Made by a program: the position numbers and the translations under genes. A stretch of DNA of 10,041 bases from Candidatus Margulisiibacteriota bacterium (lineage in GTDB: Bacteria > Margulisbacteria > WOR-1 > O2-12-FULL-45-9). Positions 6,007 to 7,428 of this stretch are shown here, piece by piece. The notes beneath the pieces were generated by a model. That model had not been told where the DNA came from and did not search any database. It worked only from the letters and a program-made list of their open reading frames with translations. Position 1 is the first letter of the stretch, and each line of letters opens with the position of its first letter. Location of the stretch: NCBI GenBank assembly GCA_034723395.1, contig JAYEOW010000041.1, positions 1-10,041 of the forward strand, in the 5' to 3' direction.

Positions 6007-6603
6007 CTAGTACAAGCCCTTCGGTATTCCAGGGATCTTGGGCATTTTGAATTTTTTATACCCCGCTGGAAGTTCAAAAACCGAAGCCGGCTGCTTCCCT
6101 CTTTTGATATTCTTATACTCTACCATCCAGGACCCATCCGCCGTTTTTGTTCTAACCGGGATCATATCTTTTGACAGCCATTGATAAACCGTCTCTGATT
6201 TACCGCCGCTTTTATAGGTGATCTTATACTTATCACACATGACCCCATTTACTTTTCCTGACCCAACTTTTTTCCGGTTCATCTCCCCTGGCATTTTTGT
6301 TGTTAACCCCCTGGACTTATCCTCGGTATACTTCATCTCCATATACGTTTTCTGCCCCGGCATCAAACTCCAAACTGTCTTTTTGTCCGCGCGGATAATC
6401 GAGGTTGCTTTTTTACCGTAAACCGTCATATCCGTCCGCCATTTATTATTGGCCACATAAATTTTCCCTCGCTGGGTCATTCCTCCAAACTTCATTACCA
6501 TATCTGCCGAAAATTCTTTCGTGGCACTGGGGCCCGCGCAACCGAGGATCGAAACCATCACAAAAACCGAAACCAATGAAAAACCGATCATCTTCCTAAA
6601 CAT
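6007..6603 (-). CDS. Predicted lipoprotein, DUF4412 / LolA-like fold
   Basis: Basic N-terminus, hydrophobic core and lipobox ILG|C22. Motifs GKIYV...WRTDM, IIRADK...WSLMP..KTYMEM, GSGKVNGVMCDKY, SVFELPAGYKK resemble DUF4412 proteins. SD AAGGAGGT. Confidence 0.7.
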   Translation of the reverse strand: MFRKMIGFSLVSVFVMVSILGCAGPSATKEFSADMVMKFGGMTQRGKIYVANNKWRTDMTVYGKKATSIIRADKKTVWSLMPGQKTYMEMKYTEDKSRGLTTKMPGEMNRKKVGSGKVNGVMCDKYKITYKSGGKSETVYQWLSKDMIPVRTKTADGSWMVEYKNIKRGKQPASVFELPAGYKKFKMPKIPGIPKGLY

Positions 6604-6643
6604 ATTTTTACCTCCTTAATAAATGGTCGGGGTCCCGAAAAAA

Positions 6644-6717
6644 TCGGAGCGACTGGATTCGAACCAGCGACCTCACGCTCCCGAAGCGTGCGCTCTACCA
6701 AGCTAAGCTACGCTCCG
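6644..6717 (-). tRNA. tRNA-Pro(CGG), CCA not encoded
   Basis: CGGAGCG-TA-GCTT AGCTTGGTA GAGC-G-CACGC TTCGGGA GCGTG-AGGTC-GCTGG TTCGAAT CCAGT-CGCTCCG-A. Full cloverleaf, C1-G72, A73. Confidence 0.96.
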
Positions 6718-6751
6718 ATTTTCCTCGGGACTACCCCCCGTTAATCAAAAA

Positions 6752-6827
6752 TCGGGACGGCGGGATTTGAACCCACGATCTCTACCACCCCAAGGTAGCG
6801 CCTTAGACCAAGCTGGGCCACGTCCCG
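6752..6827 (-). tRNA. tRNA-Pro(GGG), CCA not encoded
   Basis: CGGGACG-TG-GCCC AGCTTGGTCTA AGGC-G-CTACC TTGGGGT GGTAG-AGATC-GTGGG TTCAAAT CCCGC-CGTCCCG-A. Separated from the plsY stop by 1 nt. Confidence 0.96.
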
Positions 6828-6828
6828 A

Positions 6829-7428
6829 TTATAGATACTTTTTCATCGCCTGGGAAGTCTTTAACTCCCTCCCAGAAACCAACCGCATTATATCATCCCG
6901 ATGCGTATACAACACAAGGGCAAAGGCAAGAACTCCGAAAATTATAAACTCATGCCTTTTACCGACAACAAACATCATGATCGGGATCGATCCTGATATA
7001 ATTAACGTAGAGAGAATAAAGTACCGGGTAACAACAATTAGCAAGATCCATAACGAAAGAGCGATAATGGCAAAAAATGGATCAATCGCCAATAAAACTC
7101 CCCCCATAGTCGCAATTCCCTTTCCGCCGCGAAATCTTAAAAAGATCGAAAAAACGTGTCCGGCAATCGCCGCTAATCCAGCCAGCGTCATCGCCCACGG
7201 AGTACCGAGGTACTGCCCCGCCAGATAGGCACACAGATATCCCTTGCCAACATCCCCAATTAGGGCCAGGGCGCCAAAGATCGGTCCCGCAACAACCAAT
7301 GCATTGGTCGCTCCCACATTCTTTGTCCCCGCCTCACGCACATCTTTGCCTTTTAATTTTGGAAAGATATGGCTAAAGGGTATCGAGCCTATAAGATATG
7401 ATAGAAGAATAAAAAGAAATAGGTCCAT
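6829..7428 (-). CDS. plsY: Glycerol-3-phosphate acyltransferase (acyl-phosphate dependent)
   Basis: SYLIGSIPF, DVREAGTKNVGATN, D.GKG, GHVFSIFLRFRGGKGIAT, HRDDIMRL..G.E; multiple TM helices. Confidence 0.94.
   Translation of the reverse strand: MDLFLFILLSYLIGSIPFSHIFPKLKGKDVREAGTKNVGATNALVVAGPIFGALALIGDVGKGYLCAYLAGQYLGTPWAMTLAGLAAIAGHVFSIFLRFRGGKGIATMGGVLLAIDPFFAIIALSLWILLIVVTRYFILSTLIISGSIPIMMFVVGKRHEFIIFGVLAFALVLYTHRDDIMRLVSGRELKTSQAMKKYL

Follow-up and report, generated by a model that had tools for sequence, protein, structure and literature searches.

A tRNA gene nested within the remains of another one was found on contig JAYEOW010000041.1 of a Candidatus Margulisiibacteriota bacterium, in a stretch of 10,041 nt that was analysed as a whole (the window). 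On the minus strand, a complete tRNA-Pro(CGG) gene is enclosed by two complementary arms, and these in turn by two short pieces resembling the first and last nucleotides of a second tRNA-Pro, all within 117 nt. This stretch is probably the decayed remnant of a module that replaces tRNA genes. Among the three options left by the original prediction, the relic option, in which one tRNA has entered another tRNA-Pro or taken its place, gives the best fit, because counterparts of the relic exist in two related genomes (G015 and G002) and complete nested versions in two others (G009 and G001).

Here G000 denotes the genome of the window and C41 its contig, the other G numbers are relatives and L numbers are loci. 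G000 is a metagenome-assembled genome of 1.68 Mb in 55 contigs (G+C 45%), bacterial as indicated by its tmRNA gene, in which ARAGORN counts 46 tRNA genes. Its family comprises 16 genomes from 15 genera, G000 being alone in its genus, and 41 genomes were searched overall.

Anatomy and Folding of the Nested Gene

The nested stretch is composed of five parts:

6740..6731, minus strand: outer 5' fragment CGGGGGGTAG, 10 nt, corresponding to positions 1-10 of a tRNA-Pro and read as a relic
6730..6718, minus strand: 5' arm TCCCGAGGAAAAT, 13 nt, which pairs with the 3' arm and whose outer end TCCCG is the terminus of a family of hairpin units
6717..6644, minus strand: inner tRNA-Pro(CGG), 74 nt, with C1-G72 and A73, identified by ARAGORN and Rfam RF00005
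6643..6633, minus strand: 3' arm TTTTTTCGGGA, 11 nt, complement of the 5' arm (12-13 pairs including A73)
6632..6624, minus strand: outer 3' fragment CCCCGACCA, 9 nt, read as the relic of an older tRNA-Pro from which it keeps the 3' acceptor strand, discriminator and CCA

This nested layout with tRNA-Pro-like outer ends, first proposed from the letters of the DNA, was confirmed by the sequence, ARAGORN and Rfam. The inner tRNA reaches 64.9 bits against RF00005 (gathering score 29), its anticodon is CGG according to ARAGORN, and it is presumed to be the working gene because it is the sole gene for the CGG isoacceptor in the G000 assembly. As for the outer pieces, CGGGGGGTAG differs at one base from CGGGGCGTAG, the common form in the family; on both strands of the whole genome CGGGGGGTAG occurs twice and CCCCGACCA 21 times. 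Taken as a second tRNA, the outer shell has no D, anticodon or T arms, just 10 + 9 nt being left, and it cannot be a tRNA.

The pairing of the flanks that had been expected to extend the acceptor helix was borne out, with 13 inner and five weaker outer pairs. The 117 nt fold with -58 kcal/mol (z = -4.6), and none of 200 shuffled versions folds as well. In the minimum free energy structure, the inner pairs extend the 7-bp acceptor stem (6731-6718 with 6644-6632) with one unpaired G and two G-U pairs, and have probabilities of 0.5-1.0, mostly 0.7-1.0, while the outer ones (GGG/CCC plus GG/CC) have 0.55-0.67. A repeat search independently reported the arms (I2, 12 nt, 100%; I3, 12 nt, 83%), as well as the recurrence of TCGGGAC and GTCCCGA as the acceptor ends of tRNA-Pro(GGG) (D4, I6, I7).

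In this regard, the whole 117 nt might be seen as one long RNA, tRNA-like and functional, with processing or charging at its outer end (C1-G72, A73 and CCA). Its outer ends do mimic a tRNA-Pro acceptor with an encoded CCA, which the inner gene lacks. An elongated tRNA with its own processing or aminoacylation, one of the options of the original prediction, is nevertheless very improbable in view of a shell devoid of the D, anticodon and T arms, of a weak and interrupted outer helix and of arms that are patchy among relatives. Moreover, the outer pieces are not kept as a pair in any relative, and nothing comparable exists at the nested tRNA-Met locus described below, where the outer acceptor is down to 5/7 pairs.

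Two controls place the helix in context. Within the genome, each of the 46 acceptor stems was folded with 30-nt flanks, and three tRNAs stand out: tRNA-Pro(CGG) with -27.0 kcal/mol beyond the stem (z = -3.7), a tRNA-Met on C6 with -25.6 kcal/mol (z = -4.0) and tRNA-Arg(CCT) at the end of C16. Outside the genome, tRNA-Pro loci of many phyla with TCCCG 3-14 nt upstream were taken from among the matches listed (at least 119 stretches), and 78 of 80 were scored, two being skipped for missing downstream sequence. None of these loci exceeded a contiguous leader/trailer extension of 3 bp (0 bp: 9 loci; 1 bp: 44; 2 bp: 20; 3 bp: 5).

The helix of tRNA-Arg(CCT) was discarded as an artefact, a perfect 29-nt palindrome at the contig end (C16:44700-44844) with a left arm that is the reverse complement of the true downstream gene; the real locus is on C54 (1-200). 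The C16 end is a fold-back chimera that switches strand inside the acceptor stem, an artefact of assembly or library.

With a true fold-back artefact in the same assembly, a similar origin had to be weighed for C41, but an assembly or chimera artefact is hardly conceivable there: the site is in the middle of the contig, the arms are imperfect, homologous relics exist in other genomes, and a Logan contig of run X1 (10,793 nt, depth 17) shows 0 differences over 801 nt to the window at 6300-7100. As X1 is the probable source sample, this is an independent assembly of the same sample and tests the assembler, not the sample; within this scope, the early suspicion of an artefact was dispelled. Runs X21, X22 and X2 were rejected, as they cover the tRNA bodies only, with many differences, and come from other organisms; RNA-labelled runs contain 0.05-0.07 of the sampled words.

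The Same Locus in Related Genomes

The best match to PlsY, the glycerol-3-phosphate acyltransferase encoded upstream of the locus, is found at most 1.3 kb from tRNA-Pro(CGG) in 16/16 family genomes. The inner tRNA of G000 shares 97% identity with its syntenic counterpart in G003 and 95% with the one in G011. This constant linkage with PlsY, together with the synteny of a DUF4412 lipoprotein gene downstream, identifies the inner tRNA as the orthologue of the tRNA at this site. As for tRNA-Pro(GGG), 12 of the 41 genomes have it on one contig with tRNA-Pro(CGG) at a distance of 4.7-5.6 kb, and the two genes are adjacent only in G000, G007, G036 and G040, plus G039 according to BLAST coordinates.

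Pieces of the shell were found in three relatives. In G015, TCGGGGCGTAGCTTAG (16 nt of a tRNA-Pro 5' end) is followed by TCCCGAGAAA and then by the tRNA, which amounts to a longer version of the G000 5' fragment with the same arm, the 3' arm being lost. G008 has CCGGGGATAG upstream of tRNA-Pro(CGG). In G002 the tRNA is followed by a 63-nt palindromic insert and then by GTCACCCCGACCA TTTTTAAAC, a displaced tRNA 3' end with CCA that resembles CCCCGACCA TTTATTAA of G000 and whose ...CACCCCGACCA end matches the outer 3' piece of G000.

Arms of 11-12 bp with other sequences occur in G004, where TCCCGTCAAAT, the tRNA and ATTTGACGGGA are flanked by a T-arm fragment (GTGGGTTC) and TCACCC, and in G011, where TCCTGAAAGAT, the tRNA and ATCTTTCAGGA follow each other and no shell is visible; one clear compensatory change is TCCCG/CGGGA versus TCCTG/CAGGA. 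An alignment of five flanks aligned the arms poorly, and their pairs were counted by hand instead. A contiguous extension of at least 6 bp is present in five of the 16 genomes (G000, G001, G004, G011 and G015), in G001 and G015 as an A-run opposite a T-run. In the comparison with relatives proposed early on, relic pieces recur (G015, G008, G002) and the arms are patchy among sister genera.

A tree of aspartate kinase and PlsY (15 rows; G003 and G008 were omitted, their genes being missing or partial) has two well-supported branches among its 12 inner ones. In a supported sister pair G004 has arms and a relic and G013 has nothing, and there is also a difference between G015 and G001, which belong to one genus. 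Such rapid change of the locus, among sister genera and inside a genus, argues against an anciently conserved processing element.

Such an element would be a leader/trailer helix selected at the RNA level, cut by RNase III or guiding maturation, the tRNA-like outer ends being incidental; plsY, the tRNA without CCA and the DUF4412 gene would share one transcript, from which the helix would free the tRNA. The number of paired positions is 11-13 in three genera although the sequences differ, both non-Watson-Crick pairs of G000 are G-U on the tRNA strand, no terminator separates the tRNA from the next gene, a ribosome-binding site lies no more than 30 nt further on in G000, G004 and G011, and an RNase III gene is present in G000. 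We still regard this explanation as unlikely, since most family members have no arms or have lost half of them (two of the five extensions of at least 6 bp being A-run/T-run pairs), G003 and G008 share the downstream gene without arms, G015 lacks the 3' arm and sister genera differ, and since inverted ends of a unit account for the pairing without any selection on the RNA.

A scan of metagenome contigs with PlsY retrieved 14 loci, the best at 63-68% identity. Among them L066, L068, L069, L070 and L067 (the G019 contig) have a plain tRNA-Pro(CGG) or none, L070 containing no tRNA at all.

Several further observations concern the tRNA-Pro genes of the group. In G009 (C56, L029), tRNA-Pro(CGG) adjoins plsY on the opposite strand, an inversion with respect to the other 15 family genomes. 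In G007 (C7, L025, 303-467), a tRNA-Pro(GGG) gene is a chimera with D and anticodon arms of the GGG type and acceptor and T arms identical to the CGG-type gene of G000, from which it follows that tRNA-Pro isoacceptor genes recombine. Many tRNA-Pro genes in loci L002-L036 have an A-run upstream and a T-run downstream, so that 3-9 A-U pairs extend the acceptor, and the tRNA-Pro(GGG) of G040 has an acceptor extension of 11-12 bp (AAAAAGAAGAAT / ATTCTTCTTTTT). Some relatives have a tRNA-Pro with an encoded CCA (L009, L033, L037). As for the ancestral site of tRNA-Pro(GGG), the open reading frame (ORF) of a small membrane protein upstream of it in G006 had no tblastn match in G000 (E <= 1e-5).

A Dispersed Family of Small Palindromes

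The arm ends of C41, TCCCG and CGGGA, also delimit a family of small palindromes. These are of two sorts, GC-rich ones of 15-20 nt and ones of 36-43 nt whose centre is AT-rich and in many cases includes TATAAT. Units of the family often stand in tandem, giving the junction CGGGA|TCCCG. The word TCCCGA occurs 1523 times in G000. The genome-wide palindrome count that had been suggested gave 56 TCCCG..CGGGA hairpins with a stem of at least 7 bp, above all 13 control motifs (5-45, median 14), two of which come near (45 and 36). Similarly, the junction word CGGGATCCCG was counted 29 times versus 0-21 for 12 control palindromes, and 13 of these 29 were recognized by reading as junctions between two units.

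At four loci of G000 (on C41, C6, C12 and C22) TCCCG or CGGGA abuts tRNA-derived fragments, and the same holds for G001, G004, G005, G006, G009, G011, G015 and G022. Hairpins of the family were seen within tRNA-derived sequence of 10 genomes. Hairpin units are also found at several intergenic sites of G000, and some are nested in the loops of other units (in G011 and in the third hairpin of C6). Of about 14 junctions inspected by eye, 3 have GTAG in front of the unit, the left flanks not being conserved. Other genera have copies 82-93% identical at sites of their own (G007 alone accounts for 13 matches), and because similar copies are found at differing sites the units are dispersed repeats and not single-copy orthologues. 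A pair of units is also present in the 16S-23S spacer (C28:3980-4033), about 25 nt past the 16S 3' end.

The arms had been noted to equal the acceptor ends of the neighbouring tRNA-Pro(GGG). This match is real, but an origin from the neighbour is not required, as TCCCG...CGGGA is the generic end of the hairpin family. A scenario of this kind would do without any mobile unit: unequal recombination, gene conversion and internal deletions would have reduced a former tandem array of tRNA-Pro paralogues to the present locus, with GTCCCGA as the 3' end and TCGGGAC as the 5' start of lost copies of the tRNA-Pro(GGG) type. Besides the identity of the arms, the G007 chimera (GGG-type core with CGG-type acceptor and T arm) demonstrates recombination between paralogues, adjacent Pro-Pro pairs exist in G007, G036 and G040, and tRNA-Pro(GGG) has been relocated beside plsY in G000. 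However, two independent internal deletions would be required, each sparing acceptor halves only; hairpins with these TCCCG/CGGGA ends also exist in tRNA-Met, tRNA-Asp and the rRNA spacer, at which tRNA-Pro plays no part; and the versions of G009 and G001 are precise insertions, not deletions. We therefore judge a paralogue array to be rather unlikely too.

Neither an element nor a function would be needed if the palindrome had grown by fold-back or template switching at the inverted repeat of the acceptor stem, the complement of one flank being copied onto the other as in a quasi-palindrome extension. The arms indeed continue the acceptor stem from the -1/73 pair in G000 and G011 (in G004 A73 is unpaired and the arm starts from -1/74), the C16 end displays such a fold-back around tRNA-Arg(CCT), as an artefact there, and A-run leaders face T-run trailers at many tRNAs of the group. 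This origin appears improbable, since it leaves unexplained the tRNA-derived outer fragments, the shared TCCCG/CGGGA ends and the hairpin pairs inserted in the D- and T-loops of outer genes.

A second repeat family, whose ends resemble CTCGACTCG..CGAGTCGAG and whose core resembles GAGCGAGCGAAGCGAG, is located at the 3' ends of tRNAs, of which it carries duplicates (21 nt at tRNA-Met, C29:74019-74198; 12 nt at tRNA-Tyr, C25:1543-1875). It also flanks many other tRNAs of G000, and part of the tRNA-Met copy recurs on C25. A broken frame of an IS200/RAYT-like Y1 transposase, 81 aa plus a shifted continuation, is found at C19:37834-38058 (L058), flanked by CCGACAAT..ATTGTCGG hairpins that are distinct from the TCCCG units.

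Nested tRNA-Met Genes

A comparable arrangement exists at a tRNA-Met locus. On C6 of G000, an intact tRNA-Met with a leader/trailer helix of about 16 bp sits inside a tRNA-Met-like shell, which is interrupted by two hairpins after position 10 (GGGTAG|TCCCGA...) and by two more in the T-loop (GGTTC|...|GAATCC). The inner tRNA-Met and its arms lie between the D and anticodon arms of the shell, whose acceptor has decayed to 5/7 pairs, counted by eye. The site, delimited by a promoter and a membrane-protein gene, was compared in 12 family genomes (a 13th locus, of G003, fell outside the filter): five of them (G004, G008, G012, G013 and G014) have a plain tRNA-Met directly behind the promoter, which indicates that the shell is the old resident gene, and four (G000, G005, G009 and G011) have relics or nesting.

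The clearest view is given by G009, from which two blocks were excised by their coordinates, one of 155 nt (a hairpin plus TCCCGAT..inner tRNA..ATCGGGA) and one of 72 nt (a hairpin pair in the T-loop). In the sequence so restored ARAGORN calls a perfect 76-nt tRNA-Met, with nothing lost or duplicated, which means that the insertions were exact. What distinguishes the inner from the outer tRNA-Met of G009 is a set of compensatory changes in the acceptor and T stems, which would be expected for alleles coming from different lineages.

Excision of all TCCCG..CGGGA hairpins with a stem of at least 6 bp from G000 yielded zero new tRNAs and lost two, a tRNA-Ala CGC and the nested tRNA-Pro CGG. A blastn-short search with the 46 tRNAs against G000 returned a single 3'-end duplication, present twice, along with two hits attributed to chance; it misses the relics because they are too short or too diverged.

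Mini-Nuclease Genes at tRNA Loci

A more complete version of the C41 locus is found in G001. Downstream of plsY there is a promoter, followed by the 5' part of an outer tRNA-Pro(CGG) with a hairpin pair in its D-loop, an ORF of 88 aa for a GIY-YIG protein, an intact tRNA-Pro(CGG), a 27-nt spacer and the 3' part of the outer gene with a hairpin pair in its T-loop. The 88-aa protein belongs to PF01541 (5.7e-19) and is 58% identical to copies found in a tRNA-Asp array of G000. At the orthologous locus of G012 a GIY-YIG frame also adjoins tRNA-Pro(CGG).

Four of the five GIY-YIG matches in G000 are beside tRNA sequence, three in the tandem array of C12 and one behind tRNA-Gln(TTG) on C39, and the fifth is within a 426-aa frame. 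In the array, each 81-aa GIY-YIG gene follows a hairpin-interrupted, 3'-truncated copy of tRNA-Asp. These three genes and that of G001 at the plsY-linked locus lie among hairpin units; the 11 ORFs scanned in the window include no nuclease gene. A plain tRNA-Asp occupies the corresponding site in 10/10 relatives checked, every visible tRNA-Asp copy of G000 carries a hairpin, and an intact tRNA-Asp was not found in the G000 assembly, even by ARAGORN with introns allowed, the array reaching the contig end. For the GIY-YIG proteins the closest solved structures are 1ZG2 and 1YWL, both UPF0213, and Pfam gives PF01541 only.

The surroundings of both G000 loci deserve a description. On C12 (1-1350, L060/L202, minus strand), an HNH endonuclease gene precedes the array of at least four tandem units, which runs off the contig end, each unit with a tRNA-Asp 5' part bearing one or two hairpin units at position 39/40, a decayed T-arm, an 81-aa GIY-YIG gene and a promoter. 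At C39:15350-16250, a second-family repeat and a GIY-YIG gene of 101 aa come after tRNA-Gln(TTG), and a 279-aa frame runs into the tRNA from upstream.

Origin of the Nested Locus

According to the reading we favour, a unit with complementary ends 5'-TCCCG...CGGGA-3' carrying tRNA-Pro(CGG) would have taken the place of a resident tRNA-Pro gene, of which positions 1-10 and the last 9 nt with CCA would be all that survives. The inner tRNA-Pro(CGG) would work and the outer shell would be dead, the long leader/trailer helix representing a by-product of the inverted ends. The precursor would be trimmed by RNase P and a 3' processing activity, after which a CCA-adding enzyme would add the CCA. The unit would belong to a family-wide system of palindromic units and GIY-YIG mini-nuclease genes paired with replacement tRNAs, whose units or nuclease modules would land precisely in the loops of tRNA genes without target duplication, and at C41 the nuclease gene would have been lost. 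We infer in this way the descent of the G000 locus from a nuclease module, the order of events and the mode in which the units move.

Several points weigh against this reading. The shell amounts to 10 + 9 nt, and its tRNA origin relies on short matches and on the relatives; the arms share just their terminal 5-6 nt with the dispersed hairpins, and as the same 7 nt are the acceptor ends of tRNA-Pro(GGG), the arms may conceivably come from tRNA-Pro paralogues. That both wobbles of the arms take the G-U form on the tRNA strand speaks slightly for maintenance at the RNA level. Among the 11 ORFs scanned in the window there is no nuclease, integrase or transposase gene, and no copy of the C41 cassette was found at a non-orthologous site. 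The closest relatives have 63-68% PlsY identity, so that no before/after pair is available for the locus, and the tree has too few well-supported branches (two of 12) for a count of independent gains and losses.

The insertion into loops without target duplication, together with the GIY-YIG link, suggests either cutting of single-stranded DNA (ssDNA) of the Ssn type or homing of the SegB type, two systems compared below. A bolder proposal, which we consider possible yet doubtful, is that units, mini-nucleases and replacement tRNAs form one active drive for tRNA-gene replacement acting through ssDNA. The nuclease would cut tRNA genes in their single-strand loops (D-loop, positions 37-40 and T-loop), and repair would copy in a cassette whose tRNA allele has stems altered enough to be immune. 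At the cut sites of the resident gene, by then disabled, the palindromic units would serve as marks or as protection, and the C41 cassette would be a nuclease-less passenger, still movable, excisable or flippable in trans.

In the usual view, nothing in a genome is more static than its tRNA genes, which merely offer integrases a place to land. In the present case they appear to be repeatedly overwritten, the working copy arriving with a tiny nuclease gene and palindromes and the old copy being left as a shell. If true, this would be a strategy of selfish DNA that is harmless to its host, as it supplies its own replacement of the essential gene; tRNA alleles would move between lineages and isoacceptor genes would be reshuffled, and genome annotation could take the leftover tRNA fragments and the odd helices of precursors for introns, split tRNAs or regulatory RNAs. 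The window alone would represent a decayed, nuclease-less example, of value for its tie to complete versions at the same locus in relatives.

Gene Order around the Locus

The neighbouring features of the window are the following:

7428..6829, minus strand: plsY (PF02660, 1.8e-46), the conserved upstream neighbour of tRNA-Pro(CGG)
6827..6752, minus strand: tRNA-Pro(GGG), identified by ARAGORN and Rfam, which begins one base past the plsY stop codon
6751..6741, minus strand: spacer TTTTTGATTAA, 11 nt, between tRNA-Pro(GGG) and the outer 5' fragment
6617..6611, minus strand: Shine-Dalgarno sequence AAGGAGG of the DUF4412 gene, 6 nt behind the outer 3' fragment
6603..6007, minus strand: DUF4412 lipoprotein gene, syntenic in G002, G003, G008 and G011

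A search between tRNA-Pro(CGG) and the lipoprotein gene found no terminator, and a promoter scan gave three promoter-like sites versus 1.6 expected, none of them convincingly positioned for either tRNA. Both tRNA-Pro genes of the window lack an encoded CCA. Elsewhere G000 has genes for an enzyme of the CCA-adding type and for RNase III, and a search with the RNase Z profile (TIGR02651) gave weak sub-threshold matches only. The flanks of tRNA-Pro(GGG) carry an imperfect inverted repeat of 9 nt between leader and trailer, ATCTATAAT / ATTTTTGAT (7/9; window 6744-6759 and 6821-6836), whose 5' arm overlaps the plsY stop codon.

Comparison with Known Systems

In the part of the literature covered, which included few subscription journals, neither nested tRNA genes with hairpin units nor tRNA-linked mini GIY-YIG cassettes in bacteria were found described. 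Partial tRNA genes are a known trace of integrative elements, which leave duplications of tRNA 3' ends at attL and attR. In this line, a displaced tRNA 3' end stands downstream of the working gene in G000 (CCCCGACCA) and in G002 (GTCACCCCGACCA), and 3' ends are duplicated at tRNA-Met (C29) and tRNA-Tyr (C25). The differences are that the 11 ORFs of the window include no integrase, a 5' fragment remains as well, the G009 insertions have no duplication, and the insert is about 100 nt with a whole tRNA between inverted repeats, only 11 nt separating the tRNA end from the displaced end. Compared with miniature inverted-repeat transposable elements (MITEs), C41 has the terminal inverted repeats but no target-site duplication, the G009 excision being exact too.

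REP/BIME sequences, which depend on RAYT Y1 transposases, and 'peel and paste' elements of the IS200/IS605 type also involve short dispersed palindromes, often paired, and insert without target duplication through single-strand hairpins. The units studied here share with REP/RAYT the paired dispersed palindromes and the lack of target duplication, and GTAG precedes the unit in three cases. A link to RAYT was discarded, as the only Y1_Tnp match of G000 is the broken 81-aa frame with different flanking hairpins. The leader and trailer stems of rRNA operons, cut by RNase III, are a conserved and functional duplex around a stable RNA; the duplex described here is, in contrast, patchy among relatives and accounted for by inverted unit ends. 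In heterocystous cyanobacteria, tiny palindromic repeats are reportedly nested in one another and in genes for structured RNAs, as Elhai et al. are said to have found in 2008; the phylum and the sequences are different, and we know of no nuclease or tRNA cargo described for the small dispersed repeats of cyanobacteria. A tRNA intron or split tRNA of the archaeal type was rejected, given the working inner copy at each nested locus and a bacterial host.

The free-standing homing endonuclease SegB of phage T4, a GIY-YIG protein encoded in a tRNA gene cluster, recognizes a site that includes the conserved T-stem-loop motif of tRNAs and drives co-inheritance with the neighbouring tRNA genes (PMC2330249). 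In the present group a GIY-YIG gene stands beside a tRNA at the orthologous locus of G001 and G012 and at tRNA-Asp and tRNA-Gln of G000, none being among the ORFs of the window, and hairpin pairs here lie in T-loops (TTC|GAA); the replacement tRNA copies here differ from the resident ones in their stem sequence. SegB is a phage protein with an added DNA-binding part, however, and nested tRNAs, hairpin units and relic shells are not described in the abstract on SegB.

Finally, the Ssn family comprises single-strand-specific GIY-YIG nucleases associated with NTS/SRM hairpin repeats, and its authors liken the NTS-ssnA-NTS layout to an insertion sequence (Chenal et al. 2025, PMC11893778). The units in G000 sit inside tRNA genes, one enclosing a whole tRNA, and C41 has no nuclease gene, whereas tRNA is mentioned 0 times in the main text of that article. 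The published SRM pattern has 7 matches in G000 versus 5 in a mononucleotide shuffle, none of them at hairpin units. The likeness lies in small single-domain GIY-YIG genes amid many short GC-clamped hairpins (PMC11893778), and in the dRS3/NTS core, ATTCCC-N8-GGGAAT or TTCCCGCG..CGCGGGAA, which resembles the TCCCGC..GCGGGA units of G000. Such a link with the Ssn family suggests that loci of this kind could be a source of new sequence- or structure-specific ssDNA nucleases.

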